Below, one piece after another: positions 13,448-40,828 of a stretch of DNA of 40,828 nt. The first letter of the stretch is position 1. Each line of letters starts with the position of its first letter. The notes beneath the pieces were generated by a model, which ran no database searches, was not told where the DNA came from, and saw only the letters and a program-made list of their open reading frames with translations. A program made the translations under genes and the position numbers. The stretch is taken from positions 1 through 40,828 of the forward strand of contig JAVZXS010000006.1 in the NCBI GenBank assembly GCA_038886535.1, written 5' to 3'. Source of the DNA: Candidatus Micrarchaeia archaeon (lineage in GTDB: Archaea > Micrarchaeota > Micrarchaeia > CABMEP01).

Positions 13448-14123
13448 AATTGCTGAAAAAAAAGAAATAGGGGGTCTTACAATTGAAAATCCGCAGGCAT
13501 TTGTGTCAACGGTTACTCAGGTTGCGGATGCTCTAAAATCAGTTATTGAGAAGCAAAAACTGTATGCAGTCATAAACAATCGCAAGTTTGTAACATGTGA
13601 GGGATGGACAACTCTTGCTTCTTTGTGTGGCTTTATTCCTTCAGTCCAGTCGGTTGAAGTGTATAAGGATGGTGAAGTCCTTGAAGCAAAGGCAGAGGCA
13701 ATTCTTCAAAAGAAAGGCGTTATTGTTGCAAAGGCTATTGCTTTTTGTAGAGCTGATGAAGACAAATTCGGCGGAAAAAGAATGCAAGAGAAATATGAAA
13801 TTGCCTCTATGGCTCAAACAAGAGCAGTGTCAAAAGTTTGTCGTATAGCTCTCTCATGGATAATGACAATGGCAGGTTATGAGGCTACACCTGCCGAGGA
13901 GATAAAAGCTGAATATGTAGAGGCAGAGATAGAAAAACCGAAAGCAACAGAACAGCAACTCAAGGCAATCCATGCAATACTGAACAAAATGAATTTGCAA
14001 ACAAGAGAAGAAAAGCTAAAGAGAATTTCACTTGTATTGGGCAAGGAAATATCTTCTTATGACGAATTGACAAAAGCAGATGCTTCTACTCTTATAGAAA
14101 ACTTGCAAAAAGAACCATTCTAA
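13440..14123 (+). CDS. Putative single-strand annealing recombinase
   Basis: KFVTCEGW and SMAQTRAVSK...GYEATPAEE core; C-terminal ATEQQLKAI...LTKADASTLIENL domain; near an exonuclease gene. Confidence 0.6.
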   Translation: MNEIAEKKEIGGLTIENPQAFVSTVTQVADALKSVIEKQKLYAVINNRKFVTCEGWTTLASLCGFIPSVQSVEVYKDGEVLEAKAEAILQKKGVIVAKAIAFCRADEDKFGGKRMQEKYEIASMAQTRAVSKVCRIALSWIMTMAGYEATPAEEIKAEYVEAEIEKPKATEQQLKAIHAILNKMNLQTREEKLKRISLVLGKEISSYDELTKADASTLIENLQKEPF

Positions 14124-14135
14124 AGGGGGTGTATC

Positions 14136-14330
14136 ATGATTAATGAAGCATGGGCATTATGGGTTAAAGAAATGCTTTTAAAGGCATTGGAAGATAAAAA
14201 GAATAGAGAAAACATAATTTTGAACATTATTAATGACATTGACAATGAGTTTGAGGAACTAAAGGAGTTTTATGAAGAGGAGCTAAGACAAAAGCAACAG
14301 AAAGATAAAAAGGGGGTAAGTAATGCGTAA
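14136..14330 (+). CDS. Hypothetical protein
   Basis: GGGGGTG SD; coupled within the operon. Confidence 0.7.
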   Translation: MINEAWALWVKEMLLKALEDKKNRENIILNIINDIDNEFEELKEFYEEELRQKQQKDKKGVSNA

Positions 14331-15273
14331 ATGGTCTCCAACGATGATTAATGCAACTAAAAAATGCAAAAGACATTTTGAAAAGAAATTTATAGAAGAA
14401 GCTCCTGCGGAAGTAATTATTCAGGAGTTTGAACAGGGTAAGCAGTATCATGAAATAGCAGAAAGGTTCCTTATAACAGGCAACGATGTGAACCTTCAAG
14501 GCTTAAACTCTGAAGTCCAAAAAGCATTAAAAGAAATAAAAAATATGGGTAAGCTATACATAGAAAAAGAGTTTGAGAATGAAATCATCAGGGGCATAGC
14601 AGATATTGTGATTGATAATGAGAATGAATGGATTGTTATAGACATAAAGAGTAGGTATGACAGCGATATATCTCAAGATGATTATGTTCAGCTTTATACA
14701 TATCTCTATTTTCTTCAACAAGAGCAAGAGAAAGAAAATGCACGCATAGGCATATTAGCACTGCATAATCAATTTCACCCTCTTCATATAGAGCAAGCTC
14801 AATATAAAACGCTTCAGGACTTGAAAGAATATGTTGAGCATCAGATAGAGCTTGCTGAAAAAAGAATACAACACATGAGAATTAATACTTCATATTGCAA
14901 ATACTGTGAATATATTCTCTCTTGCGATGCTATCACTGAAAAGCCTGTATCAATAGAGGAAATAGCACGAAAGTATCTACAGCTTGAGCAACTTCTGAAA
15001 CAATATGAGTATACTTTGCGGGAGCATGTGAACATAACAGGGCAAAACATTGTTGTAGATGATGTTGAGATTGGCATGCACATTAGGAATGTTACAAAAA
15101 TTGATGAAGAGCTATTATTAAAGATAGCAAAAGAGCAACAGATACCATTACATACTATATACAAACCTGATATAACGAATATTAAAAAACTTGCTAAAAA
15201 ACACCAAGAGCTTGCTAATGCAATTAATATTGAACAAGATTACTATTTCACATCAAAGAAGATAAAGGGATAG
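14323..15273 (+). CDS. PD-(D/E)XK Cas4/RecB-like exonuclease
   Basis: WSPT..C, RGIADIV, VIDIKS, QLYTY, CKYCEYILSC (1+3 Cys pattern of Fe-S nucleases). Confidence 0.8.
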   Translation: MRKWSPTMINATKKCKRHFEKKFIEEAPAEVIIQEFEQGKQYHEIAERFLITGNDVNLQGLNSEVQKALKEIKNMGKLYIEKEFENEIIRGIADIVIDNENEWIVIDIKSRYDSDISQDDYVQLYTYLYFLQQEQEKENARIGILALHNQFHPLHIEQAQYKTLQDLKEYVEHQIELAEKRIQHMRINTSYCKYCEYILSCDAITEKPVSIEEIARKYLQLEQLLKQYEYTLREHVNITGQNIVVDDVEIGMHIRNVTKIDEELLLKIAKEQQIPLHTIYKPDITNIKKLAKKHQELANAINIEQDYYFTSKKIKG

Positions 15274-15275
15274 AC

Positions 15276-15515
15276 ATGGATACAAAACTAAAAATGATTA
15301 AAAATTATATTGTCTCGGAACTTGAATGGCTTAAAAAAAGACAAGAGGAACTTGCTCAAGAAAAAGATATTATTTTAAACAAATTGAACGAATATAATGG
15401 CATAAGAGATATTGAGGATTTGAAAAGAAAATACGATGATCTAATATGGACAATTTTTAAAATTGATGGTGAAATTAAATTGCTAAAAAAGGTATTAGAC
15501 ATGATTGAGAAATAA
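15276..15515 (+). CDS. Hypothetical coiled-coil protein
   Basis: Operon-coupled ORF. Confidence 0.65.
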   Translation: MDTKLKMIKNYIVSELEWLKKRQEELAQEKDIILNKLNEYNGIRDIEDLKRKYDDLIWTIFKIDGEIKLLKKVLDMIEK

Positions 15516-15525
15516 GGAGGAAAGC

Positions 15526-15765
15526 ATGAAATTTCTTAGAGAGTGGGCAATAGCTTTGTTAACATTAGCTTGTATTTTGTCTATATTTCTGGGTTATTTC
15601 TGGCGTGTCTACCATGAAAAAAAGAATTGGGACAAATGGTCAGATGCCATAAAGCATGAGTTTTTACTTGAGTTAACAGATACAGGCAATCAGGAAGTGA
15701 GCTATTACAAGGATTGGGTTTTTATAAAAAGAGCAGATGGCTCGGTAGTAATAAAGAGGAGGTAA
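15526..15765 (+). CDS. Hypothetical membrane-anchored protein
   Basis: AAGGAGG SD; N-terminal TM segment WAIALLTLACILSIFLGYFW. Confidence 0.65.
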   Translation: MKFLREWAIALLTLACILSIFLGYFWRVYHEKKNWDKWSDAIKHEFLLELTDTGNQEVSYYKDWVFIKRADGSVVIKRR

Positions 15766-15767
15766 AA

Positions 15768-16058
15768 ATGGAATTCAAACACAAAAACATTGATTTAGAT
15801 GATTTAATGGGGAAATATTTATACAAATCTTATAGCCACGCATTAATTAATTATTTAAGCAACATTGGAACTTTAGAATTGAAATTTGGCAAGATTGCAG
15901 AGAAAATATTTGTAGTTGCAAGATTAATAAAGAAAACAAGTATGTATAATGAAGAAGTTATTGAAATAGAGGGTGAAGCATTTTATTCAATAGAAGATGC
16001 AATGACAGATGCGTTGTATCTTCTTTGGGAGAAGATGGAGAAAACACAAGGAGAGTAA
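15768..16058 (+). CDS. Hypothetical protein
   Basis: Start refined to ATG 15768 after GAGGAGG. Confidence 0.65.
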   Translation: MEFKHKNIDLDDLMGKYLYKSYSHALINYLSNIGTLELKFGKIAEKIFVVARLIKKTSMYNEEVIEIEGEAFYSIEDAMTDALYLLWEKMEKTQGE

Positions 16059-16059
16059 T

Positions 16060-16578
16060 ATGTTATCAAGTTTTAAAGTTGATGAATATTTAAAAGTAGA
16101 CAACTTAAATCGGGTCAATCTTATAACAGGAAGAAATAATACAGGTAAAACTGCATTTCTGAACGAAATTTTTTATTATTATTTTGATGATGTGAGTGTT
16201 CCTGCTTCCTTTATAATGCCAACAACTCATTTTGAAAGAAGTGGTGATAGAAAAATAGAAGCAATAAATAAAGAATTGGAGAAGAATGAAAATGGAATAG
16301 TTTTGATAGATGGGATTGAAGTCAATATCCATCATTCAAGATATACAGAGCTATGGGAATTAATAAGAGAGAAAGCAATAAAATATAATTGTCAAGTATT
16401 TGCAACAACATTGAGTTATGAGTGTATAGCATCAGCATTTGAAGTGTTTTCAAAATATGAGCCTTATGAGTTGAGTTTTTATAATTTTTCGTATAAAGAT
16501 TTTGCGATTATGGTTACTTATTATGATAAAGAAACTTTACAGTCAGCACTTGAGCTTGGATTAGAAATACGGGGGTAA
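16060..16578 (+). CDS. Miniaturised, degenerate ABC-type (AAA_15/AAA_21-like) ATPase
   Basis: Walker A GRNNTGKT intact; Walker B VLIDGIE (DE to DG); H-loop ATTLS (expected TTHS); central region missing. Confidence 0.7.
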   Translation: MLSSFKVDEYLKVDNLNRVNLITGRNNTGKTAFLNEIFYYYFDDVSVPASFIMPTTHFERSGDRKIEAINKELEKNENGIVLIDGIEVNIHHSRYTELWELIREKAIKYNCQVFATTLSYECIASAFEVFSKYEPYELSFYNFSYKDFAIMVTYYDKETLQSALELGLEIRG

Positions 16579-16802
16579 TAGATGTCAAGTAGACACTTGA
16601 AATAGACAATGCAATTATGTTCTGTGTAAAGAAATTTGCAGAAGGGGTATCAAAGTGAAAAATATTGCGACATTGGTAACAAACATTATAAAAGAGATGA
16701 AGAATAGAAAAGCCCTTGCATGCAATGCAAATAAGCGACTGTCTAACTGACAATCCAGCAATGCAAGAGCATATATCATTATAACATAAAAAGGAGGTAA
16801 AA

Positions 16803-16985
16803 ATGGATAGGAAAATATGCCCTTTAACTTTTGCAAATACTAATGTGGATGAATGGTGTGTGAAGGAGAAGTGCGAGTGGTGGAATGGGGATGAGTGTTC
16901 TGTTAGGGCAATTACGAAACAGTTAGAGGAAATAGCAACATCACTTAAGCTGATAGCTCGTGGATATATTGACGATGGCAAATAA
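16803..16985 (+). CDS. Small Cys-rich phage protein
   Basis: AGGAGG SD; CPL..C..EKCEWW....C. Confidence 0.7.
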   Translation: MDRKICPLTFANTNVDEWCVKEKCEWWNGDECSVRAITKQLEEIATSLKLIARGYIDDGK

Positions 16986-17124
16986 AGAAGTAGTAAAGAT
17001 AATTAAGAACATCTCTAAACTTACAGATGAGGAGCTTGTTAGGTTAAGTATTTCAGTTGAGCGAGAGCTAAAAGCAAGAATGAACGGGGAGAAAAATGGC
17101 AAACAGAAACAGACAAAGAGCTAA
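16975..17124 (+). CDS. Hypothetical 49-aa protein
   Basis: Manual translation MANKEVVKIIKNISKLTDEELVRL...; fills the gap and overlaps both neighbours. Confidence 0.5.
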   Translation: MANKEVVKIIKNISKLTDEELVRLSISVERELKARMNGEKNGKQKQTKS

Positions 17125-17389
17125 AGAAGTAGAGAGAGCTGTTGCTAAAAAAGTAGGTGGTCGTAGAGTGGGAATATTAGGACAAGAGGATATATCGCAT
17201 GACAAGTTTTCTATTGAAGTGAAATCAAGGAAAGTTTTTGTAGCGGAAAAGTGGTTTGCACAAGCTGAAAAAAACGCAAAAGGGAAAGTGCCTCTTTTGA
17301 TAGTTCATGTAACAGGGAAAAGACATGATAACGATTATGTGATTATGAAATTGAAAGACTTTTTGGGGGTGTGTAATGATTTCTCATAA
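17096..17389 (+). CDS. Holliday junction resolvase (Hjc-like PD-(D/E)XK)
   Basis: AKEVERAVAK..G...D.....SIEVKSRK; PLLIVH; VIMKLKDF. Confidence 0.75.
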   Translation: MANRNRQRAKEVERAVAKKVGGRRVGILGQEDISHDKFSIEVKSRKVFVAEKWFAQAEKNAKGKVPLLIVHVTGKRHDNDYVIMKLKDFLGVCNDFS

Positions 17390-17720
17390 TGCTTTTATGG
17401 CAATTTTAAAAGAATTGCAATCAAGAGAGGGAGAAGTTTTAGACAAAAGGGCAGAACTATATTCAACTGATTACAACAGAACCCACAACTTTGAAGCAAT
17501 CGGAAATAGGGTCAATATGAAACCACCAGTCGTTGCACTAATTCTCGCTTATAAACACTTGGTAGCATTAGAAGATTGGCTATTAAATTACAATCGTCAA
17601 AAATATGACACAGTTGATGCATCGGATTTTAAGCAAGTTGAGGAATGGATTATAGACATTAGGAACTATCTTGCTTTTATTTATGCGATGCTTTATGAAA
17701 ATATTGAATACGATAACTAA
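17376..17720 (+). CDS. Hypothetical protein (possibly DUF1599/nucleotide-pyrophosphatase-like)
   Basis: KRAELYS..RTHNFE...K...DIRNY helical pattern. Confidence 0.45.
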   Translation: MISHNAFMAILKELQSREGEVLDKRAELYSTDYNRTHNFEAIGNRVNMKPPVVALILAYKHLVALEDWLLNYNRQKYDTVDASDFKQVEEWIIDIRNYLAFIYAMLYENIEYDN

Positions 17721-17735
17721 AAAAAGGAGGGAAGT

Positions 17736-18569
17736 ATGAAACCTTTATCAGACAATTGGGAATTTTTTAGGGCATTTACTGATAGCTACATTAGTGTTCA
17801 AAAGGTTAGAGTAGCATCAGAGAACAGAGTGAGAAGTATCATTCAGGGTAAAGATGAGAATGAAAAACATAGAAAGAGGATGTTTGAAAGTTTAGCTTTA
17901 CTGAAAAAGAACGAAAAGGAATTTGTCAAGATGGCAAAACAGGTTTTAATTGAGGAACCTGTTTATAACGAATTCTTAGCTCATATTCGGGGGATAGGAG
18001 AAACACTTGCAATGAAGATATTGAGTTTTCCTCTGGATTTAGAGAAAAATGTATCTTCATGGTGGGCAATGGCAGGGCTGGTTCCTGTGGTGTGGAAATG
18101 TGAATGTGAAAAGGGGCATAAGATACTTTTGCACAAAGATCCTGAAAAGCATTTAGAGCTGAGATGTTACGCAAACATAAATTCAGAGAAATGTGATGCT
18201 CCAATTGTCAAAAGTGAAATGGCACCATCTAAATTGCACGCAGGATACAGAGCATTTTGGAATGGGAAGCTAAAGCAGTTAGGGTATATTATTACTGATG
18301 AGTTTATCAAATTAGGGATTTATTACAGGAAAGCATGGGAAAAGTTCAGAGATGAAGGCTTGCAAAGAGGCATGAAGCCTATACATGCAAATAGACACGC
18401 AAGAAGACTAACATATAAACTATTCCTAAGCCATTTACACGAGTGTGGTTGTGAATTGAAGGGAATACCATATCGTAAGCCTTACGCTTTTGAATTCTTA
18501 AACCACAAATGGTTTATAGGTTATAAAGATGTAGTATCCATAGAGAAGACGATGAAAGAAAAAAACTAA
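17736..18569 (+). CDS. tasA: Nop-domain/IS110-related RNA-binding protein; TIGR-associated, nuclease-less (TasA-like)
   Basis: N-terminal coiled coil (QKVRVASENR); IRGIGETLA..IL, SSWWAMAGLVP, WNGKLK, HANRHARRLTYKLFLSHL, PY...LNH. No RuvC/DEDD domain. Immediately upstream of a dual-repeat array. Confidence 0.8.
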   Translation: MKPLSDNWEFFRAFTDSYISVQKVRVASENRVRSIIQGKDENEKHRKRMFESLALLKKNEKEFVKMAKQVLIEEPVYNEFLAHIRGIGETLAMKILSFPLDLEKNVSSWWAMAGLVPVVWKCECEKGHKILLHKDPEKHLELRCYANINSEKCDAPIVKSEMAPSKLHAGYRAFWNGKLKQLGYIITDEFIKLGIYYRKAWEKFRDEGLQRGMKPIHANRHARRLTYKLFLSHLHECGCELKGIPYRKPYAFEFLNHKWFIGYKDVVSIEKTMKEKN

Positions 18570-18583
18570 AAATCTAAAATCAA

Positions 18584-19409
18584 AGTAACATTAATAGAAG
18601 TGAACCATGCTAAAACGAACCAACTTTCGTAGCTACATGTAAATAAGTGAACCAGTTTGTATGAGCTACTTTAAGGAAAGTGAGCCATCATGAAATAGAA
18701 ACAAAACAGGGCAGTGAACCAGATGTTAAATGATGCCAACTAATAAAGTAACATGTTGAATTAGCGAGCCAAACACAAAAAGCAACAGAAAGCTTTAGTG
18801 AACGAACCATGGGAAAGGAGCAAAAAAATTGACGAGTGAGTTGTGAAAAATAAGCAACATCAATAGAAACGAGCAAAGGAGTAAAAGCAACACCATTCTT
18901 TAGCGAGCCATAAAATTAAGCAACACTGCTAAATAGCGAGCCATAGCACCGTAGCAACAAAGACTTAGAGTGAGCCAGACGGAAAAAGCAACAGAGTGCT
19001 TGAGCGAGCCATTTATCATAAGAGGCAGAAGTTTTCAGCGAGCTACTTTATAAAGCAACATATACTAATAGCGAGCCGTTCTTATTCAGTAACAAAGTAG
19101 AAAAGCGAACCACCTTTAGATAGCAACAAGAAAGTGAAGTGAGCCAGACTATAAAAGTAACAGGAAAAGATAGCAAGCCAAATTTGACAAGCAACATAAC
19201 AGTTTAGCGAGCCATACACATGAAGCAACATTTTGTATTAGCGAGCTATACTTCCTGAGCAACATGTTGCGTCAGCGAGCTTGGTCAAAGAAGCAACACG
19301 GCAAAGTAGCGAGCCATTTGTTAGAAGCAACACATCGGAGCAGCGAGCCAAAGGAAAATAGCAACAAACGGAAGGAGCGAGCCATTATAATTAAGCAACA
19401 AAGTCTGAA
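18584..19409 (+). repeat. TIGR-like tandem interspaced guide RNA array (~24 units, 34-nt period)
   Basis: Alternating repeats AGCAACA (7 nt) and AGCGAGCCA (9 nt) separated by unique 9-nt (sometimes 8-nt) spacers. Short repeat at 18886, 18919, 18953, 18987, 19021, 19054, 19088, 19122, 19156, 19190, 19224, 19258, 19292, 19326, 19360, 19394. Confidence 0.9.
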
Positions 19410-19417
19410 GCATAATA

Positions 19418-19446
19418 TTTACAAATTTACAAAATTAATTTACAAT
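19418..19446 (+). promoter_or_regulatory. Putative sigma70-type promoter
   Basis: TTTACA (19418-23), 17 bp, TACAAT (19441-46). Confidence 0.5.
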
Positions 19447-19455
19447 AGAAAGGGG

Positions 19456-20868
19456 GTGATTTTTATAGCCAAGCTGTTTGAGGGACTTGTGTGTGAGCGA
19501 GTTACAAAAGTATTTGATCCATTTGGCTATGGTGTTAATTATGTAACTGATTTAGCTTCAAAGCAATCTTCCTATTTAATTCTTTGTTCTACAAGAAGAT
19601 ACTCTTATGAATTCAGGGATAAGTTTAATGAATACAACATAGAAGGCAATTACAGAAGGCTTTCAAGCTATTTAGAGGATATTTATCATGAATGCACTTC
19701 TATACAAGACATAATTAACTTTTTCTATGACCATACCTTCTATCATAACAGCACATATCTAAATAAGAGAAACATTATTTATCAGTGTTATCTAAATTAT
19801 TGTGCAGAAAGGGAAAAAATCAAATTCCCTTATCCAATTCACGAAAGCTATGAAAAATTTAAAAAGATATTTCAAGAGAGAAAAATCATAGACGATACAG
19901 AGCTATATCTGAAATGTCTTAATGACAACATTGAAAAGAAAAAAATTGATACTTTGATTTACATCAACGCAGAGGATTTAACTGAAACGATAATTAATGT
20001 TATAAACAAGCTATTTGATTACAAGAACCTTATCATAGTAGGAGACAGTAATAGACCAAATAGATATTTTTTTAAGCCTGTAGTAAGTATGAAAAATAGC
20101 AATGTTAATTTATCTTCAGTGAAAGTAGTTCCTAAAATATTTGCAAATAAGATTAAAAAAGTAGCAACTGATTTTGTATATGACATTATAACTAATGATA
20201 ACACAGCAATATTGAAAGTAAAAAAATATGCTGAATTTAAAGAAACAGTAGAACATGTAACAAATCAAACAGATAAATCTGCAAAGCTAATACTACCAAG
20301 CTATGACTATCAACCACAAATAGAAAAGTTATTATTTGGCTTAAATATACCCTTTAAAACACTAAGTGATAATTATAAATTTCCTACCCAGCTTTATACT
20401 TTTTATAACGCAGTGAAAAAATTAGTTACAAACAAGGGTTATGTTACTAAAAAAGAGATTTATACTATTATAGATTTAGTCAATCCTGCTATTTCAGATA
20501 GATTTGGTGGCAAACTAAAACTAAAGAAAATGTTTTACGATTATATTTACCCATCCTCTTTGTTAAAAAAAATGAACTTCTTTCAAACATTGCAAAAGCT
20601 ATATGTTAACGAAAATTTACATTATGCTTTAACAAATAAACTATCCTATGAGTTCGTCAAATGGAAAGGTAAATTGAATGAGAAATACCTAAATGCTAAT
20701 ATGTTTGTTGCACCATTGCTTTATGCAAAAACTATTCCAACTGATATTACTGTCATGATTGTTGATAAACAACCACAACATTATTACAAAAAAATGCTCT
20801 ACTGCTGTTTAACTTCTACTTCAGAAGCTATTTATGTCATAAAATTGCCTGCAAATTGGAAAGATTAA
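19456..20868 (+). CDS. Catalytically degenerate UvrD/Rep-like SF1 helicase
   Basis: Collinear decayed motifs: DPFGYGVN (I), LILCSTRR (Ia), LIYINAEDL (II), IIVGDSNR (III), PLLYAKTIP (V), LYCCLTSTSEAIYVI (VI). The ORF-track start 19264 lies inside the array; GTG 19456 or ATA 19465 is more plausible. Confidence 0.65.
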   Translation: MIFIAKLFEGLVCERVTKVFDPFGYGVNYVTDLASKQSSYLILCSTRRYSYEFRDKFNEYNIEGNYRRLSSYLEDIYHECTSIQDIINFFYDHTFYHNSTYLNKRNIIYQCYLNYCAEREKIKFPYPIHESYEKFKKIFQERKIIDDTELYLKCLNDNIEKKKIDTLIYINAEDLTETIINVINKLFDYKNLIIVGDSNRPNRYFFKPVVSMKNSNVNLSSVKVVPKIFANKIKKVATDFVYDIITNDNTAILKVKKYAEFKETVEHVTNQTDKSAKLILPSYDYQPQIEKLLFGLNIPFKTLSDNYKFPTQLYTFYNAVKKLVTNKGYVTKKEIYTIIDLVNPAISDRFGGKLKLKKMFYDYIYPSSLLKKMNFFQTLQKLYVNENLHYALTNKLSYEFVKWKGKLNEKYLNANMFVAPLLYAKTIPTDITVMIVDKQPQHYYKKMLYCCLTSTSEAIYVIKLPANWKD

Positions 20869-20951
20869 CCTCTAAATCAATTATGGGAGCATTTTTAAAA
20901 AAACAAATATAAAACCATTAGTCTTGAGTGAAAAACGCCTCTAAATCAATT
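20869..20951. repeat. CCTCTAAATCAATT direct repeat x2 bounding the convergent intergenic region
   Basis: Copies at 20869-20882 and 20938-20951. Confidence 0.7.
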
Positions 20952-22760
20952 CTACGCATTTGGTTTTGCAATGAAGGGGGCTAAATCTTTGTATAAGCCG
21001 AGAGCGATTAATTTATTAGTGCTTTCTTGGTCAACTTCGTTAGCAAACCTTAGGCTATCCTCGTAAGAAGGAAGCCTGTGGTAGATATATTTTCTCCAAA
21101 ACTCAACTGCTAATGCGGCGGCAAGTATTCTGTCATCGTGTTTACCTTCTTCAGCTTGTAATTCTCCTTTATCTGTTTGAACAAAAAACTGCATTTCTTC
21201 AAGTAATGCTTTACTTTTTATTTCTAACATATTGAGATGATATACACTTTTGAACTGATTTAGCAATGGTGGTTTAGTATGACCTGTAGTATTCCAGAAT
21301 TTAATATAATTCTTTTTCAAGGTTTGCTGTTTAGTGTAAAGGTATTCTCTGATATAAGGAATATTGGCTTTTATCACATCAAGGTTAATATCTTTAACAT
21401 CGGAACGAACGACAATATTGCCTATGTCTGACAATTTACCCTTGACATCGTTCATCTCTTTTATGATTACCTGACCTACTCCATTAATTTCAAGATTAAG
21501 ATAAGAGTTTTTGTAGAAAGCACATAGAAATAAGCAAATTTTAGCAAATTCAATAACTCCGATATTGTTAGCTCTGAATTCTGCAACTTGAACAAGTTTG
21601 TCTTTGTAGCCTTTCCATATTGATATAACTGCCATATCGCTATCCTTAGAAGAACCATATGAAGGATCTGCACCTATAAAATAGGTCTCGTGCAATTTAG
21701 GAAACTCGTAAATGTGCAAATTAGCTTCTCTTTGATTAGCAGTATCTATATATACTCCCTGAGTATCTGCATTAATATAAAAATAGTAAGGCTTTATTGT
21801 GGCAACTTTTTTCATGTCTTCCATGAGCTTGTAAGCATCAAAGAACTTGTATCCTGATAGTCTAAATGCCTCTTCATCATAAAATGGTAGTTCCTGAAGG
21901 CAATAGTTTTCATCTCCATTGAAAGTAGTATCAAGCTCTTTTCTCCACCAAGCTAATTGTTCAATGCTAATTTCATAGCCATACATTTTTTTGACAAGTT
22001 CTATTTTTCTTTGTTCCTCTCTTGACATAGGATAGCCATACACTTTAAACAATGGGTCATCTTTTTTAATCACATAATCATCTCTACCCCACCAGCCAAC
22101 AAAGATAGCTTTAGATGTAGGATTGTTTTTAGCTTCCATGTATCTATCATAAAAAGAGTTAAAACCATTTGCAGTGCTTTCAAGGATAGTATATCTATGA
22201 GGATGCGTTTTAGCAGAGGATACCATTAAGGACTTTAGAACCTTTTCTTCAGGGTCGTTAGCAGAATAGAAAGCAACTTCAGTAGCATGTATGCAAGTTA
22301 ATGCTTGAGAACGAGCAACTGATTGTTTAGTGCTTTCTCTTGAGCTAACATGGAAAAATAAAAATTCTGAATTATTGGAAAACTGCATTAAGGTTCTATT
22401 GTCTATAATTACAGGCAACTTGTGAGTTCGTGGTAAATGCAAATACATAGTTCTAACTATCTCTCTTAACTTAGGTCGTGCTTCATAGTCTTGGGTTAAA
22501 AAGCCAAGTTTAATGCCACTGAAAGTTTGCACCCAGAACAAATCCAGTGCTAATAACAAAGTAGTGCAACCTTGTTGTCTTCCTTTAAGAATTACAAAAT
22601 TTCTTATCGGGGATTTGTTTTCTATTTCTCTTAATATTTCGTTAGCTATATACTTCTGAGCATAATACCATCTGTTAGGGGTAAAAAGCATTTTACCTTT
22701 TTCTTTAGAGAAAATTACAAGATGGTTAGCCCAATTGATAAATCTTTTTACCATAATCAA
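20952..22760 (-). CDS. terL: Terminase large subunit
   Basis: ILKGRQQGCTT, IHATEVAF, ILESTANG, FIGADPSYG..D and GKHDDRILA motifs. The true start may be ATG 22754. Confidence 0.92.
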   Translation of the reverse strand: MIMVKRFINWANHLVIFSKEKGKMLFTPNRWYYAQKYIANEILREIENKSPIRNFVILKGRQQGCTTLLLALDLFWVQTFSGIKLGFLTQDYEARPKLREIVRTMYLHLPRTHKLPVIIDNRTLMQFSNNSEFLFFHVSSRESTKQSVARSQALTCIHATEVAFYSANDPEEKVLKSLMVSSAKTHPHRYTILESTANGFNSFYDRYMEAKNNPTSKAIFVGWWGRDDYVIKKDDPLFKVYGYPMSREEQRKIELVKKMYGYEISIEQLAWWRKELDTTFNGDENYCLQELPFYDEEAFRLSGYKFFDAYKLMEDMKKVATIKPYYFYINADTQGVYIDTANQREANLHIYEFPKLHETYFIGADPSYGSSKDSDMAVISIWKGYKDKLVQVAEFRANNIGVIEFAKICLFLCAFYKNSYLNLEINGVGQVIIKEMNDVKGKLSDIGNIVVRSDVKDINLDVIKANIPYIREYLYTKQQTLKKNYIKFWNTTGHTKPPLLNQFKSVYHLNMLEIKSKALLEEMQFFVQTDKGELQAEEGKHDDRILAAALAVEFWRKYIYHRLPSYEDSLRFANEVDQESTNKLIALGLYKDLAPFIAKPNA

Positions 22761-22769
22761 GTTTTACCA

Positions 22770-23195
22770 TTATAAGAATTTTATCAGTTTTTTTCTAACA
22801 TATTCTTTGCTAAGAGTATTTTTGCATTGCTTTACTGTCTCATTTACTATTATTTTAACTTTCTGTAAATCATTAGCACAATTTACTAAAGCCCATATTA
22901 GATTAAGAGTTGCCTGATTAATATGCATAGAATTGAGATAATGTATCAAATGCTCATGTTTAAAGAGAGTAATATCATACACTTTTTGAACTCTTAACTT
23001 GTTTTGTAAAAACTCCATTATCCTAACTGCCATTCCTGCATCAAAAAGTAACAAGACATTAAGGAAAAATATCTTGTAGGCATGCTCCTTTAAAAAATGT
23101 AGTTTAAGATATTCAAAATTAGCCCATGCCTTTTCTGCCTCTACATCTCCAAACCCTCTTTGCTGTGCAGTAAAATATACATAGTCTGGTATCAT
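22770..23195 (-). CDS. Hypothetical protein
   Basis: Operon-coupled ORF upstream of terL. Confidence 0.6.
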   Translation of the reverse strand: MIPDYVYFTAQQRGFGDVEAEKAWANFEYLKLHFLKEHAYKIFFLNVLLLFDAGMAVRIMEFLQNKLRVQKVYDITLFKHEHLIHYLNSMHINQATLNLIWALVNCANDLQKVKIIVNETVKQCKNTLSKEYVRKKLIKFL

Positions 23196-23389
23196 CGCTT
23201 TTTGAGTAAGACCCTACCAAGTATTGATATACCAAAAAATACTAACATGAATGGTAAAGCCTTTTCTGAGTAGAACAGTGTAACAAGGAATAGAATAGAG
23301 TTCAGTATGAGAATAAGCATAATCTCAAGAATACCACTTGCTACTAAATACCCAATGATACTTTCTTCTCTTTGTTTAATTTTCATCAA
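23192..23389 (-). CDS. Small two-TM membrane protein
   Basis: Two hydrophobic segments; GGAGG SD. Confidence 0.6.
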   Translation of the reverse strand: MMKIKQREESIIGYLVASGILEIMLILILNSILFLVTLFYSEKALPFMLVFFGISILGRVLLKKR

Positions 23390-23663
23390 AAATACCTCCC
23401 AAAGTGTTTTCTAATTTCTCTACATTTTCTAAATCCTCATCAAGACTTAATGCAGAACCAAAACTACTGTCTGCAATCTTAGCATTAATCTTTGCAACTT
23501 CTTTCACTTCCTTAATGACTAACAAAGGAGCTTTAATACTTTCAATGTCTACTATTTTACCCTTATTCCTTGCCTGAATAATATCATCAAGTAAATTTAA
23601 AGCAAGAGTGTTTAATTTGTCCACCATGATTGTTAAAGTATCTTTGTCATTCTTTTTCCTCAA
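23376..23663 (-). CDS. Hypothetical helical protein (terminase small subunit candidate)
   Basis: Size and position upstream of terL only. Confidence 0.45.
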   Translation of the reverse strand: MRKKNDKDTLTIMVDKLNTLALNLLDDIIQARNKGKIVDIESIKAPLLVIKEVKEVAKINAKIADSSFGSALSLDEDLENVEKLENTLGGIFDEN

Positions 23664-26600
23664 GGTATTCCTCCACTCTTTTTTGTTTAAGCATATACTC
23701 TGTTAAATGATACTTTAGTGATTGTGGTGATACATAATAGCCACTCTCAAATGCTTTTCTCATGTAAGCCATTGCAGTATCGTTATCACCCTTCACTAAC
23801 GATTTTGCTATTGCTTTAGAATACTCATTAACTTGTGTCTTATAGTTATCTACACTCTTTTTAATTGCTGTTATATCTTCATAATACATGTTTAAAGTTG
23901 GTGTTGTAAAGCCTAAAGCATAAAGCCACTTTTCGTGTTCGGGTATTTCATTGGGAAGATTAAAGTATACTTCAATTATTTTTTTCTTTAATGGATTTGG
24001 CATTCTTTGAATATCCATCAATGTTATATGAGGCTTGCCAAATATATCAGTAGGCAATCCTTCTGTAAAGAGTGTATATGCCCCTATTGCCCTTTTAACC
24101 ATTGTGGGAGATACTCTCTTAATTAATTCTGAAGTATCTATGTCTTCTCTACCCCATAGTGATTTAGCTCTTACCATTTCAGTAATTATAGGGAACATTG
24201 CCGCATCAAATAGCTCAGGAGCGCCAAAAGTTATAGAACCATCAAGTCCTATTTCAGCGAGTAAACCTTTACGAACAAATAAAGGAATTTCCTTTTTAGC
24301 CTCATTAACCTTTAATCTAAATTGAGGGTCTTTTTTGCTTACTATTCCTATAATTATCTCAATTAGACTATCTAACAGTGGTATACCTTCCAACCCAGAA
24401 AGTGCAATTGCCAATGCCAATGACGAATAGAATGCTTTTTTATTAGGATAAATATGAGAAAGAAAGTTTATATAGTTTAAGATATAGCTCTTAAATATAA
24501 AGAATGGTGCTAATAATCCTCTACCTATATTTGGTCTATTAGCTTGCGAATACAGAAATTGAGTATTAAAGATAAAATCACTTGTAAACTCATATAAAGC
24601 CTCTCCAGTTATACCCTTGTTTTTGCCTATCAGGTATGCAGTAATTGCCGCATTCAATCTATTAGAGCGTTCTGACAAATTACCAAATATTGATAAAGCC
24701 TTTAAGGCTTTGTCTCTAAAGCCTATATCTTTGTGCATTATTGCTTCTAATTCACCTTCTTTAATCATTCTAATCAGAATGTTTTTCAGTTCAGGTTCTA
24801 TGTATTTTGCTTCTGTAACTGTATCTAAGAACCTTTTACCTCTTATAAAATCTGCTACCGCATCTTTGTATATCCTAAACTCAAGTGGAGTGGCTTTAGC
24901 AAAGGCTTCTAATCCTTTTTCACCATCAAGATAATAAGCATACCATATGGTTGTCATAAATCTTTGTGATAAGTTGACAAACATAAACGCAGGCTTTAAT
25001 CCGAGATAATACAGATACATTAATGCTCTTACTCTAACATTGAAGGCATTTTCAAAGTCTTTTCTACCATAATAGTAGTCCACTAAGTCTCTTGCGTATA
25101 TATACAACTCTCCGTTTGTTTTAGCAATCTTTTCAAGTTCTTTTACGACATCAACATAGTAAAACTTTTTGGCTAATGCAAGGGGAACTGTATCTATATA
25201 AGACTTGACTATTTTTTCAACATCAATATCATACCCTGATACTCCCGCTCTTTTTGATAATCTACCTTTAGCGAGTATCTTTAAATATTCTTTATCTACT
25301 ATTTGTGTAAACTTCTTTATTTCTTCATTACTAACTCCTTTAGCTTCAAGATAAGCATCAAGCATAGGCAAATATCTATGTATAGTAGCAACAACAGAAG
25401 GATCTTTAACTGAAAAACCTATTAGATGACCTTCATTAACTCCTTCTCCCATTATTCTGTTAGCTTTACCTCTTTTAGTATCAATTATGAATACATTATA
25501 TCCCGAAAAGTCTATATTATTTTCTCTTGCATATTCAATTGCTTCGTTAGGTAACCCATTTTTCGTTATTTCTTCAGCAAACTTTTTAGCTTCAAGCATG
25601 GTATCAAAGGCTTCATAGTGTATCGTTACCTTGCCTTTCTTTTCATCAGGAACTCCTACCCATACTCCAAATCTACCAAGCCTGAAATGAGGAAGGTAGC
25701 CATTGATATAATGAGCCTCTATAAATTCATCTGCCTCTTGTTCAGTCCATCCAGCATCAAGCATAAACCTCTTAAGCCCTATCTTCTGAATATAGTCAAG
25801 AGCCTTCCTAACCCCATAGTAAGCCTTTATCTCTTCTTCTGTTAACCCTATTGCTTCAAGCTCATATCTCTTGTATGTTTTCTGTTGAGCATCTCCTTGT
25901 AATAGCAATCTATTAACTCTTGTTTTATCTTTAAGTTCTATATAAGGTCTTAAATACTCTTTAGCTTCATTGCTAATAACATTAGCCCTTGCATTGATTT
26001 TGTAAAGAGTTTTAGTTAAAGGCTTAATAACTTCATTCCACCAAGGCACTCTTAACATGCTTTTAGCTATACCTGTTATGTCTGATATTGCAGTGCCAAG
26101 TTTATCATAAAGCCTTTCATAAATTGGTGGAGCTTTCTTATTTAAACTTTCAAGAAATTTTCTATTAATGTCAAAATCTATATCCTCTATTGATAAGTCT
26201 TCTTCTGTTAAAGCCATATTTTGTATTTGCTCATACTTTTCAATTTGCTTAAGTTTTTTCTCTACTAATTCTTTAATTTTTGCTTGTTTTTCTAATGGAA
26301 ATTCATTTAATAGTTCCTCTATATAAATGAAATCTTGCGGTAAACTACCTGTTTGTATAGCTTCATTGTATTTCTCAACAATAGAATTTATTTGTTCTTG
26401 TTGAAGCATTTTTGCTTGCAATTTTGGAATATACACAAAATCAGCATTTTTTGTAACAATTTTATATAATAACTCAGTAACATTGGGTGCTATTAATGTG
26501 CTACCATCACTGACATGAAGACCTACTACTTCTACTAAGCTATCTAAAACTGCTGTTGAATTTTTATTCACAATTAAGTTTACTGTTTTAGATAAAGCAG

Positions 26601-29600
26601 GCATACTAATAAATGGCACTCTATCTATATAAATGTGGTTAACCTTACTTAATTGCGATAATTCCACATAAGGCACTGTGCTTTTATAATAGTATAATTT
26701 ATCTCCGATTTCTTTTAAATTACCGAGATTAATATGTCCAACATCTGATAAGGCTAATTCCTGATTAACTTTAACCAAATTCTCTACATTAGTAAATGGA
26801 GTGTTTTGAATACTCAAAAAATCAACTTCTTTTAATTTATCAAGCTTGACTTTTGCATTGCCTTTACCATTAATACTTATAACAGATGCTGAAGACAAAT
26901 TTTCTAACGATATAGTTCCTTTGGAAGAAAGGTAAGCTTTTGTAATTCTTTCTAATGATGGTAAGTCAATGCCACTATCAACTTCTATGTCTAATCCGCT
27001 TGGTTCTACACTTTTTAATTCAGGAAAGTAAGCAATATCTTTAAAATTTCTGCCCGCTTTAATTTCAATAGTATCAAACAAGTCAGATTTTAACTTTTCT
27101 ATTTTTGAAATATCTACTTCCTCATAGAGAGGAATGCCTGCTATTTCTAAAGCATTTACTTCTCCAAACAGCGTATCAACTGGCATTACATAAGGTATTC
27201 TAAATACAAAATCATCTTCTGCTGTAATATTATCAAGATTGATTATCCCATTGCCAACATATAGTGTATTATTTTCTTCAATAAAACTTAAAGCATCTTG
27301 TTTGTAAAGCCTATTGTTATATTTATCTGCAATTTTCTTAATGTTTTCCCTTCTTTCCTCAAATGACATCTCCAAAAGTCTATCTCTGTTTTCAAGCAGC
27401 TCTTGTCTCATTTTGATATTATTAACAAATTCTTCTCCTCCCTTAAACCATTTATCTTTTACAAACTTCAGTATAGGCTCAAACATTACTTCCTCTATAT
27501 CTTGTCCTTTACCAATTCTACCCCTTATCTCAGTAATTCTGTCACCAATCGTTACTACCACTACCCTTGGATTTCCATCTTCATCAACAAACATGTGTAG
27601 GTCTCTGTTTTCTAAATAGCCTTGTGCGGCATATCTAATACACCACCCTGAAGTGGTAACTTTATTAGATAAATGTTGCACTAAGCCAATTGCATTGTAA
27701 TAATCTTCTTTGGTAGCATATTTGGATTTATCTGGAAATGATAGCCATCTTCCTTTTACATTTATATCATTAGGAGTTCCAGCAAGCCAATATTCAGTAA
27801 ATAGCCTCTCCATGTGTTCTGAGAATATGTCAAAGTAATTCAGAACCCATTTTCCCTCTATTCTTCCTTCTACAAGTCTATTATAAAAGTCTCTTACTGC
27901 CCCTGCTATTGGTGGAAGTGGCTTCTTTTGAAGCGTTGAGCTTGAAAGTTTATCAACTCTTACTTCATTACCGTCAATATATACGACATTCTTAACTATC
28001 CTTTGAAACATCAAAATATTAAATGGAAGTGGTAAATCAAGCTCGTTTAATACATCAATCCAATCAAAATATAGTCTTTGCAGTGTTATGTTTTCATGTT
28101 CAAGGATGTTATCTTCAAATTGCTCTCTGTCTATTATTCTATTTTCAAGTTGTTGTAAGTAGCCTGCTGTTTCAAAATCAAGCTCTCCTCTTTGTCTAAG
28201 TCTTCTTAATTCCTCTATTTCTCTATTAATATCTGCAATTCTTGTTCTGTAATATAATGGATCAAAGTTTGCAACCTTGTTTGATATATCTGCCCAATAG
28301 TCCATTAATTTTTGTATTTGCTCAATTGTTAACTGTTTACCCTTTATGACATCATTAAGTGCCGCCATTACTTCAGTGTTTATATCAAATTCCTCTGCTT
28401 CTTTACTAATCTCTCCTAAATATCTATCCCTGTATTCTCCTCTTAATGCTTTATTAAAGAAAGTAGCAACATCAACATAATTAAATCCTTCTCCTCTAAA
28501 GAGATGGTTTAGAGATACAAAAAATGCTTCTATTCTCGTGTAGAGATTGTTTATCCAATCAGGTAGTTTAATGCTTCTTTGTAAATAGTTAGCAAACATA
28601 TCGCATCTTTTTTCTGCATTAGGTTCAAACTTTTCAAGCCTTGAAAGTTCCTGTCTTGTTAATAGTAGCTTTTCTACATCATGCCAAGCTTCATGTCCAA
28701 GAGTAGTAACATTCATATTAGATAAAGATACTGCAATCATAGAACGCCATTTTTCACCATCAAAGTAAACCCTTTGCATGCCTGCAATTTCAACAGTTTC
28801 TTTTAAATCACCTAATGCCCATTTTTTAGCTACTTTATCTAAAGCCTCATCATCTACCACAATTCTATCGGCAAGTATAATTTCCGTATCAGGAGATACA
28901 ACTCTTCTGACAATATCAAGCATTTTGGCAATGCCTGATGCTTCTATTTGGCTTTCTGTTGCTAATGCTATTTTTATACCTGTTTCTGTTTCAATAATTT
29001 GTCTATGGTCTCCGATGCCTTTATTGATGCTTTGATTATTTCTAATCTCGTAATCAGTCGTTTCTTCCCATATAATTTTGGTTTGTTGATAAGTTCTTGA
29101 GGCTTCATCTTTTAAGACCTCCATTTTGTTTATTAAATTAGCTTCCTCTAATGAGTAGCCTTGTAATACCTTCTCTATATTCCCTGATAATATCTTAAAG
29201 AAAGCTCTTAATTTTGTAGAGTTATCTTTATTTGCCTGTAAAAATCTTGCTATCTCTATTGCCTCTTTACTGAATTGCTTGCCAAATAGGTCTTGATTTT
29301 TGACAAAGGTATCAACAAGCATACCCATACTGTCTGCTCTTCTTACTATATCAACAGCTTCTGTAACATCTCCGAATACATCATATTTCTTTGCCTGCTT
29401 TTTAAAGTTTTTAGAAATACTTATAAACCTGTCATAAGCAGAAGATAGAGCGGTTAATACTTTTGCTGTAAGTTTATCTTCAGCATTATTAAGTAAGTCT
29501 ATAAGTTGCTGATTGTTATATTCCTTTGCAAGATTTCTTATTTTAATCTCAATATCTTCAGGCAAAGCTAACTGAAAACTGATTTGTTCTTGCCTTCTAA

Positions 29601-37694: not shown

Positions 37695-38774
37695 TTATAT
37701 TACTGATACTGCTGGGAAGCTCGTAACCTTAAAGCATGATACTGGTGCATCGCATACAAGTTGTCCACCAAACTTTAACGCACTTAAGAAAGCAAGTCTT
37801 CCAATGATTGTGGTATCATACCAAGGAGTTACAGTTACCATATAGCCATCGGCAAACTCAAATCTTAAGTGGTCAAAGTTGATGAAATATATTGTGTTAT
37901 CTGTAATATATGGGTCTGGGAATATAGCACATCCATTAACAACAACACCTGTTACTTCGTATTCTCTAATGGTGTCAATTTTAGCAGTATCAGCAATGAT
38001 ATACTTTTCAACAGATGTAAAGCTCTCAATTATCTTTTGCCAACATCCATAGGAAGTAAAGGCTATATTAGGTAATCCCATTGTTGAAGCGTCTTTGTTA
38101 AATTTAGCTAATGCTCTCATGACAAGAACATAAGCCGCTGGTGCATCATTAGTGGTGTCATACCCCAAATCAGTTGCCGCATCATATACTTTAGAGTTCC
38201 ACCAAGAGTATGTGCTTCTGTTAATGTTGCCATATGTAGCATTTACTGTTCCATTGTCAATTATGTCTTTGATACCATAAAACTTTGTAGTATTTTCAGT
38301 TCCAGATACTCTTGTTCCAAGTAGGTCTGTCGCAACTGTATTCATAAGGTCAAGCCATGTTCTTGAAGCCATTGCGGCAACATTGTCAACGAGCATATTA
38401 GGATTACCAGAGTTGTAAGCCTGAACCTCAAAGTCTGTTACATAGAGAGTTGTAAGGTAAAGGTTCGCATAAAGGGTCATCATTTGTGTAAAGTCTCTGT
38501 CAATATCAGTAGGAACATTGAACTGCATATTGTAATCCAATCTTTGCACTCTGTTTGGGATAGTGCCTGTTACAGGTTGAGATACAAATGGAAAACCAAT
38601 AGGTCTTGATGTGCTATCTGCTAATAGTTTTCTTGTAAATGGTGAAAGTTTGCCGATATTCTGAGCAACTATGTAGTTAGGAATACCTCTTGATAAGGTA
38701 TTAAGAAAATCAGTTGCTCCTGCCGCAGATGTTCTGTAAATACCATAAGGTGTTCCATAGTTAAAACTTGCCAT
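37695..38774 (-). CDS. Major capsid protein
   Basis: 359 aa; FYGIKDII..TYGNINRSTYSWW and IFPDPYI...IYFINFDHL; follows a scaffold-like gene. Confidence 0.8.
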   Translation of the reverse strand: MASFNYGTPYGIYRTSAAGATDFLNTLSRGIPNYIVAQNIGKLSPFTRKLLADSTSRPIGFPFVSQPVTGTIPNRVQRLDYNMQFNVPTDIDRDFTQMMTLYANLYLTTLYVTDFEVQAYNSGNPNMLVDNVAAMASRTWLDLMNTVATDLLGTRVSGTENTTKFYGIKDIIDNGTVNATYGNINRSTYSWWNSKVYDAATDLGYDTTNDAPAAYVLVMRALAKFNKDASTMGLPNIAFTSYGCWQKIIESFTSVEKYIIADTAKIDTIREYEVTGVVVNGCAIFPDPYITDNTIYFINFDHLRFEFADGYMVTVTPWYDTTIIGRLAFLSALKFGGQLVCDAPVSCFKVTSFPAVSVI

Positions 38775-40673: not shown

Positions 40674-40828
40674 CTACCCCGATACTGTTTTTATAAAATA
40701 AGTTTGCACACCTGTTGATGTAGAAGATGTCAAAACAAATACAGTTAAACAACCTATATTGCCATTACTATCTGTAACTAATTCTATTACACTCTGATAT
40801 ACTGACTGTGGTGGCATTTCTACAAATG
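40674..40828 (-). CDS. 3' end of the junction-spanning structural gene starting at 1049
   Basis: In frame with 1-1049; TAG at 40674-40676. Confidence 0.75.
   Translation of the reverse strand, partial: FVEMPPQSVYQSVIELVTDSNGNIGCLTVFVLTSSTSTGVQTYFIKTVSG
40702..40828. repeat. Terminal direct repeat, copy 2
   Basis: Identical to 1-127. Confidence 0.95.

Follow-up and report, generated by a model that had tools for sequence, protein, structure and literature searches.

This locus raises a simple question: what does a 277-residue protein without a nuclease domain do next to an array of very short repeats? The window analysed here is the whole of contig JAVZXS010000006.1 (40,828 nt, forward strand), which was binned in assembly GCA_038886535.1 as part of a Candidatus Micrarchaeia archaeon. 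The gene, tasA (17736..18569, + strand), encodes a Tas protein in which a coiled coil is joined to a Nop-like C-terminal domain, and a Shine-Dalgarno-like GGAGGG (17726..17731, + strand), read directly from the sequence, lies 4 nt 5′ of its start codon. It is followed on the same strand by a TIGR array (18584..19409, 826 nt, about 24.3 unit lengths). We consider it very probable that the two form a dual-repeat TIGR-TasA system borne by a tailed phage. This assessment draws on what is observed at the locus, namely the family and fold of the protein, its lack of any nuclease domain, the anatomy of the array, a conserved candidate processing dyad and the phage context.

The original prediction placed the protein in the TIGR-Tas family, and sequence and structure comparisons agree. 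The NCBIfam model TIGR_Tas_endo (NF052498) matches residues 12-236 over positions 2-212 of its 215, with an expectation value (E) of 7e-28. A single-sequence phmmer search of the PDB returns TaTasR (9mty_A, E 6e-13), in an alignment that begins at TaTasR residue 141, past the RuvC domain of that enzyme. An alignment of 64 relatives was used both for a profile search of the PDB and for AlphaFold2. The profile finds TaTasR (9mty, E 4e-64) and SpTasH (E 7e-35), with IS621 and ISCro4 at about 1e-7. The AlphaFold2 model has a predicted local distance difference test (pLDDT) score of 94.9 and a predicted template modelling (pTM) score of 0.90. When it is compared with the PDB by Foldseek, TasR and TasH chains fill ranks 1-10 (E 9e-10 to 3e-6, headed by 9mty and 9w04), IS621/ISCro4 take ranks 11-14 and Nop5 (1nt2) is at rank 38. 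The comparison with Tas, IS110 and Nop5 proteins that had been suggested as a check therefore puts TasR and TasH on top. The three motifs picked out by eye (RGIGETLA, AGLVP and HANRHARRLTYKLFL) are all present in the protein.

The protein belongs to the Tas family and its subtype is TasA, because it has no RuvC or HNH domain and its coiled-coil helices stand directly at the N-terminus. The model opens with long paired coiled-coil helices (8-36 and 44-71; residues 1-46 fall in the first long helix), and Pfam gave no family-level match to the protein and no HNH or RuvC match at E<=10. The expected absence of an N-terminal RuvC/DEDD domain is thus borne out. HMMER with an alignment of the nine close homologs retrieved 2233 cluster representatives from the whole library at E<=1e-3, 630 of them at <=1e-10 and 28 at <=1e-30. 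Other searches returned nothing. PADLOC had no match to the tasA product, the phage collection had no protein match to it and no DNA match to 14000-24000, and a search of viral contigs for related loci with the close-homolog alignment found none. The peptides of this particular protein are absent from the part of Table S1 of Faure et al. that was covered (PMC12045711).

Since the Nop-like fold is common to several RNA-guided systems, an alternative identity has to be weighed, in which the gene encodes an IS110-type transposase with a bridge RNA, or the array consists of CRISPR-like or iteron repeats that have no link with the gene. The NCBIfam IS110 model registers weakly (E 0.039), a PHROG family annotated 'transposase' (phrog_4285) matches at E 1e-20 and the fold resembles that of IS621. 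However, the IS110 model (NF033542), whose cut-off is 140 bits, reaches just 13.1 bits over residues 30-119, and the protein has neither an N-terminal DEDD/RuvC domain nor a C-terminal serine domain. IS110/IS621 recombinases and the archaeal Nop5 of box C/D small nucleolar ribonucleoproteins share the Nop-like RNA-binding fold with the protein, which differs from them in lacking a DEDD/serine catalytic domain and a fibrillarin-binding domain, and in having guides specified as tandem short units rather than as a bridge RNA or small nucleolar RNA. The repeats speak to the other half of this alternative. They come in two kinds, 9 nt and 7 nt long, separated by 9-nt spacers, whereas CRISPR has one repeat, of at least about 23 nt, with spacers of similar size and cas genes alongside. 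No cas effector is encoded here, only a Cas4-like PD-(D/E)XK exonuclease. Furthermore, a TIGR array that has been studied experimentally has the same edge repeat. We give this alternative a negligible probability.

The array is organised as expected for a dual-repeat TIGR system. Between the tasA stop codon, whose last base is 18569, and the first repeat-like element, AGTAACA (from 18584), lie 14 nt; the predicted gap was the same and the predicted length, about 825 bp, is within 1 nt of that measured. Each 34-nt unit is built of the edge repeat AGCGAGCCA (9 nt), spacer A (9 nt), the loop repeat AGCAACA (7 nt) and spacer B (9 nt). The regular part (18902..19409, + strand) holds 15 units with a 34-nt period (units 11-25), and it is here that the predicted dual-repeat design, 7-nt loop and 34-nt period are seen. 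Unit length is 34 nt in 13 of these 15 units and 33 nt in the other 2, the edge is a perfect copy in 7 and the loop in 12, and the spacers are 9 nt long in 28 of 30 cases and 8 nt in 2. The two-unit example quoted by the original prediction is present exactly, at 18935-19002. Its figure of about 24 units stands as a length and fails as a count of well-formed units, which number only about 15-18. The decay is polar, with degenerate 5′ units adjoining tasA and near-perfect distal ones. An edge variant, AGTGAACCA, occurs three times in the decayed part, where its double change preserves the 3:6 base pair proposed below.

The pattern is specific to this array. An edge-N9-loop search allowing <=2 mismatches gave 15 matches in the window, all on the + strand and inside the array (0.02 are expected from shuffles); in the 1.14-Mb assembly the same 15 were found in the forward orientation, with 0 in reverse, 0 for a control pattern and none beyond the array. 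If the last spacer B is 8 nt long, the AGC at 19409..19411 (+ strand) would be a possible 3′-truncated terminal edge repeat, a feature of array ends described by Faure et al. (PMC12045711).

Orientation follows from comparison with published arrays. Within the portion of Table S1 covered (PMC12045711), SpTIGR has on its tas strand the edge AAGCGAGCCA and the loop AAGACAACCA with 8-nt spacers, and TaTIGR and ParTIGR have the edge TGCGAGCCA and the loop TGAAACCCA with 9-nt spacers. The edge repeat found here shares the GCGAGCCA core with all three of these tas-strand edges, and hence the array is + stranded and co-oriented with tasA. Relative to the TaTIGR and ParTIGR unit (9+9+9+9 = 36), the sole change in length is a loop repeat shorter by 2 nt. 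The resulting 7-nt loop is 1 nt under the 8-12-nt repeat length range of Faure et al. (PMC12045711). Both repeats begin with AGC and end with CA, as expected of the box D-like 5′ ends and box C-like 3′ ends that edge and loop repeats have in common, and box C of the loop is ACA, not CCA.

Edge repeats of TasR systems contain a two-pair helix, seen in TaTasR by Faure et al. (PMC12045711), and the edges of ten 34-nt arrays (141 copies, which are not phylogenetically independent) were examined for the same pairing. Positions 2:7 are A-U in 87 copies and G-C in 28 (84% paired), and positions 3:6 are U-G in 75, U-A in 27 and C-G in 15 (87% paired). Five control pairings are paired in 5-13% of copies, but 2:8 (90%) and 1:8 (82%) pair about equally well. 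The 2:7 and 3:6 covariation thus fits a helix like that of TaTasR, at the level of sequence. Because of this proposed helix, the edge repeat is likely, by analogy, to be cut between positions 3 and 6.

A candidate for the residues that would make this cut is a tyrosine/histidine dyad, Y250 and H257 (codons at 18483..18506, + strand), which may serve in metal-independent pre-tigRNA processing. SpTasH is described (PMC13421893) as cleaving its own pre-tigRNA with catalytic residues Y289 and H296 of a C-terminal loop, and a preprint (10.64898/2026.09.09.750476) treats this Y/H loop as the mark of dual-repeat systems. The profile alignment places SpTasH Y289/H296 on a consensus 'PY......H' that corresponds to Y250/H257. 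Both residues are invariant in 9/9 close homologs and widely retained among the 64 relatives. Since the dyad aligns with the catalytic pair of SpTasH and is conserved, self-processing of the pre-tigRNA by the predicted Y250/H257 dyad is likely.

The most distinctive part of the protein is an insert at residues 116-165 (18081..18230, + strand), for which alignments show no counterpart in TaTasR or SpTasH. In TaTasR the wedge spans G210-K230 (Xu preprint methods), and in the TasR structure the wedge loop separates the displaced DNA strand (PMC12045711); by alignment, the insert is placed in this loop. The model predicts it as all-beta (strands 118-124, 129-132 and 156-164, with no helix within 116-176). 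It carries conserved C122, C124, H128, C144 and C153, of which the last four are invariant in 9/9 close homologs and C122 is present in 8/9. We read the insert as a putative zinc ribbon. Searched alone against Pfam, the segment has no match even at E<=10.

An insert of the form CxC...H...C...C with an invariant histidine in a GHK motif could also be construed as a minimal HNH-like (beta-beta-alpha-metal) domain, which would turn the protein into a nuclease; alternatively, a nuclease encoded nearby could be recruited, and in either case targets would be cut. Nuclease genes do lie on the same strand within 3.5 kb upstream. These are a RusA-like resolvase (17096-17389) just upstream of tasA and a PD-(D/E)XK protein, a Cas4-like exonuclease of a type typical of phages (14323-15273), and both are ordinary phage replication/recombination genes. 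Residues 116-176 are modelled as strands only, so the helix needed for an HNH fold is missing, no conserved Asn or second His/Asp follows GHK among the 64 relatives, and the failure to match Pfam argues in the same direction. The location is also telling, as the insert occupies the place of the strand-separating wedge loop of TaTasR. We regard cutting by either route as very unlikely.

A survey of 90 related loci plus the window, in which array period was called by autocorrelation and wedge type by alignment, relates the wedge to the length of the guide unit. Seventeen loci, including the window, have the 'CxC..GHK' insert wedge; their period is 34 nt in 11 and 35 nt in 1, and 5 have no array above threshold. 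The 67 loci with a short wedge (about 10 residues) have periods of 36 nt (49 loci), 37 nt (1) and 38 nt (2), with none called in 15. Other long wedges occur at 7 loci, with 36 nt in 3, 39 nt in 2 and no period in 2. Units of 34-35 nt are therefore found at 12/12 insert-type loci with a detectable array and at 0/52 short-wedge loci, where units are 36-38 nt. Several of the surveyed loci are near-duplicates, such that these counts represent fewer independent lineages (at least three edge-repeat types). Among insert-type loci lacking a period call, L083 has irregular 36-38-nt units, and L002, L089 and L090 have short arrays of 32-34 nt. The loop AGCAACA is identical at five loci (L001, L003, L004, L005 and L008), whose edge repeat is AATGAGTTA and whose Tas proteins are 35-38% identical to the one described here. 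A separate Tas clade on viral contigs (L015, L032 and L068) has a cysteine-free 65-residue wedge insert, probably helical, and its periods (39 nt in L015 and L068, 36 nt in L032) include a further departure from 36 nt.

These data lead us to suggest, tentatively and with slightly less than even confidence, a distinct dual-repeat TIGR subtype, in which a Cys4 (probably zinc-binding) beta-ribbon in the wedge has co-evolved with a 7-nt loop repeat to give 34-nt guides. Such a subtype would contradict the description of dual-repeat guides as "uniform 36-nt" in a 2026 preprint. The original prediction overstated the novelty of the locus: the family is known, and proteins of the Cys-wedge clade are already catalogued in rows 7514 and 8071 of the part of Table S1 covered (PMC12045711). 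In the two main TIGR-Tas texts, '34-nt', 'zinc' and 'cysteine' (in the wedge sense) do not occur. Our literature search found no paper pairing tigRNA with 34-nt, although preprint supplements and TIGRSafari may already show the subtype; the papers pairing tigRNA with zinc, among those listed, are a mutagenesis-methods preprint and three reviews.

The genomic context is that of a tailed phage. The window has an exact 127-bp direct terminal repeat (1-127 and 40702-40828) and its genes include those for the large terminase subunit (20952-22760), the major head protein (37695-38774), a lysozyme of the T4 type (1460-1912; PF00959, E 8e-41) and primase- and helicase-like proteins. Taken with the terminal repeat, these genes make the contig the complete genome, about 40.7 kb long, of a phage whose DNA is either terminally redundant or circularly permuted, and the terminase, head protein and lysozyme confirm that the system is phage-encoded, as predicted. 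The terminase is closest to that of Hydrogenobaculum phage 1 (36% identity, E 2e-117), and only two proteins are common to both phages. The co-binned assembly holds an archaeal 16S rRNA. The phage encodes a muramidase, which argues for a bacterial host; with the terminase match, this makes the archaeal bin probably wrong, and the contig would be a bacteriophage mis-binned with an archaeal metagenome-assembled genome through similar G+C (34.5% for the contig, about 33% for the assembly).

Several neighbouring features deserve mention. Directly 3′ of the array (19417-19446) are 2.6 copies of ATTTACAA, which overlap the region's best sigma-70-like match (TTTACA-17-TACAAT, 10/12). An open reading frame (ORF) of about 467 residues downstream of these copies has no PHROG, Pfam or PADLOC match; the mechanical call for an ORF at 19264-20868 begins within the array, and the true start is probably near 19465-19491. 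A 189-residue mini ATPase (16009-16578, + strand; PADLOC E 2e-24, Pfam AAA_15 31.9 bits vs a cut-off of 32.1) resembles the AbiLi, PDC-M38A and AAA_15 defence ATPases at its two ends, which match their N- and C-terminal parts; it lacks the middle of those proteins. On the - strand, a giant 2738-residue ORF (23647-31866), which is not operonic with tasA, contains a ddrB-like ParB-superfamily domain at residues 386-517 (PF18763, E 1e-34), and a second stretch, around residues 2283-2465, gives a weak match of the DarB-like antirestriction type. The product may be an injected anti-restriction polyprotein.

The position of tasA, as last gene of a + strand replication/recombination block and adjoining the Holliday-junction resolvase, bears on what DNA binding would be for. 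The complex could bind DNA without silencing genes and serve a phage DNA transaction (integration/recombination, segregation or packaging) through the sharp bend that Tas complexes impose on DNA, an idea raised for TasA in the discussion of Faure et al. (PMC12045711). However, there is no integrase or ParB gene operonic with tasA, about 25 different guides are hard to square with a single fixed site, and repression is the sole activity shown so far for TasA proteins (10.64898/2026.09.09.750476). On balance such a role seems unlikely, and we favour a guide-directed block of the target.

Candidate targets were sought with the 16 well-formed spacer pairs among the 25 unit slots, each joined to 18 bp; the most decayed units (7) and those in which one spacer is 8 nt long (2) were left out. 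Both half-site geometries and two control geometries were scanned on three sequences, namely the phage, the 1.14-Mb assembly and Hydrogenobaculum phage 1. The phage genome has no target site with 0-1 mismatch, and Hydrogenobaculum phage 1 has none with <=2 mismatches. The assembly has 2 one-mismatch sites per geometry against 0.13-0.2 for mispaired controls. We reject these as targets and read them as a composition effect: they occur in both geometries and stem from the two most A/T-rich units.

In one half-site order the phage itself has 3 sites matching at 16/18, against 0.13 expected and with 0/300 shuffles reaching 3; the other order gives no 16/18 site on the phage. One lies at 26369, another (13213) overlies the ribosome-binding site of ORF 13232 and the third (12316) falls within a helicase/primase-like gene; these near-matches belong to the guides of units 18835, 18868 and 19070, respectively. 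Faure et al. report 8-nt 3′ overhangs and a cut on the 5′ side of the nucleotide that pairs with spacer base 5, the 'C-5 rule' (PMC12045711). The published geometry appears to correspond to the order without phage near-matches, although this derivation is not secure, as the sentences on the cut side in Faure et al. disagree. Autoregulation, in which some guides would act through these near-matches on the replication genes of the phage itself, would be a bolder and less likely extension of the proposed subtype.

Several observations weigh against a phage-borne dual-repeat TIGR-TasA system with the mechanism proposed below. (i) The search with joined 18-mers in both orders, proposed by the original prediction as a way to find targets, yielded no perfect 18-bp site in the phage, the assembly or Hydrogenobaculum phage 1. 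(ii) The tas-proximal third of the array is decayed. (iii) No intrinsic terminator was found 3′ of the array, and a sigma-70 scan found promoter-like signals no more often than chance (8 found vs 7.4 expected). (iv) The sequencing runs that contain the locus comprise one hot-spring metagenome, its probable source, and no RNA run. (v) The NCBIfam score is 98 bits, 2 bits short of the curated cut-off of 100. (vi) The wedge insert, with its conserved Cys and His residues, has no Pfam match that would assign it a function. (vii) MbTasA, for which repression has been shown, uses stem-loop guides, unlike the dual-repeat type found here, with its dyad kept.

The first two of these would suit a decaying relic, an eroding array that no longer has functional guides: the repeats are degenerate and irregularly spaced over about one third of the array (18584..18901, + strand), where some 9-10 units have decayed and carry indels, and no target was found on the three sequences. 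Against this, the ORF is intact, and the dyad and core residues are conserved among homologs of 50-83% identity. Fifteen consecutive regular units remain in phase, with 12/15 loops perfect, and arrays of the same design exist at related loci. A relic is thus highly improbable, and we retain the reading of a TIGR-TasA system on a phage.

Comparison with characterised systems shows where the locus fits. FpTasA of Flavonifractor plautii (Faure et al. 2025, PMC12045711) is likewise a solo, nuclease-free Nop-domain Tas protein with a downstream edge/loop array containing two short spacers, and unit-length tigRNA binding would be expected by analogy for the protein described here. FpTasA binds 36-nt RNAs, in contrast to the 34-nt unit and 7-nt loop of this locus, and, judged by its description, differs in the approximately 45-residue four-cysteine wedge insert found here. 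TaTasR (PDB 9mty) is the best solved match both by sequence and by fold (Foldseek template modelling score 0.58). The coiled coil, the Nop C-terminal domain, the edge core GCGAGCCA and a spacer length of 9 nt are common to both. TaTasR differs in having an N-terminal RuvC nuclease (nothing here corresponds to its residues 1 to about 130), a loop repeat of 9 nt, tigRNAs of 36 nt and a wedge loop some 10 residues long. SpTasH (Salicola phage CGphi29; PDB 9w03 and related entries; PMC13421893) is also phage-borne and shares the edge core AGCGAGCCA and the Tyr-x6-His dyad, yet it has an N-terminal HNH nuclease, cuts DNA, and has 8-nt spacers, 10-nt repeats, 36-nt units and a short wedge. MbTasA and PlTasA (10.64898/2026.09.09.750476, 10.64898/2026.08.11.744272) are nuclease-free like the protein here, and show RNA-guided DNA binding with repression, or activation when fused to VPR.

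We propose that tasA and the array would be transcribed together from the + strand, and that a TasA dimer, joined through its coiled coils, would bind both repeat types through their common ends (AGC at the start, CA at the end). TasA would then cut the precursor inside each edge repeat by means of Y250/H257, releasing tigRNAs of about 34 nt with two 9-nt spacers each. The dimeric ribonucleoprotein would bind 18 bp on both DNA strands and, being nuclease-free, would remain bound and so block transcription, or some other DNA transaction, at a target in the host or in a rival element. In this scheme, the dimer, the processing step, the 34-nt size of the product, the binding of DNA and the repression are carried over by analogy from published relatives. 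TasA ribonucleoproteins bind unit-length tigRNAs (PMC12045711) and RNA-guided repression of transcription has been reported for other TasA proteins (preprint 10.64898/2026.09.09.750476). Binding without cutting, perhaps for gene silencing, would match the preprint results on those proteins.

The TIGR-Tas family (Faure 2025), its abundance in phages, the standing of TasA as its commonest form and repression by TasA (2026 preprint) are already in print. What the locus adds is modestly new, a 34-nt, 7-nt-loop, Cys4-wedge subtype that would leave the workings of the family unchanged. TIGR-Tas systems are compact RNA-guided DNA binders and cutters that need no protospacer-adjacent motif, and are of current interest as tools. 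This locus supplies a 277-residue nuclease-free member from a hot-spring phage, for which a heat-stable protein is plausible, together with its natural guides, about 15 of them well formed, and the complete genome of the phage that carries them. The association of 34-nt units, 7-nt loops and the Cys4 wedge suggests that co-adaptation between protein and guide reaches beyond the stem-loop TIGR systems.

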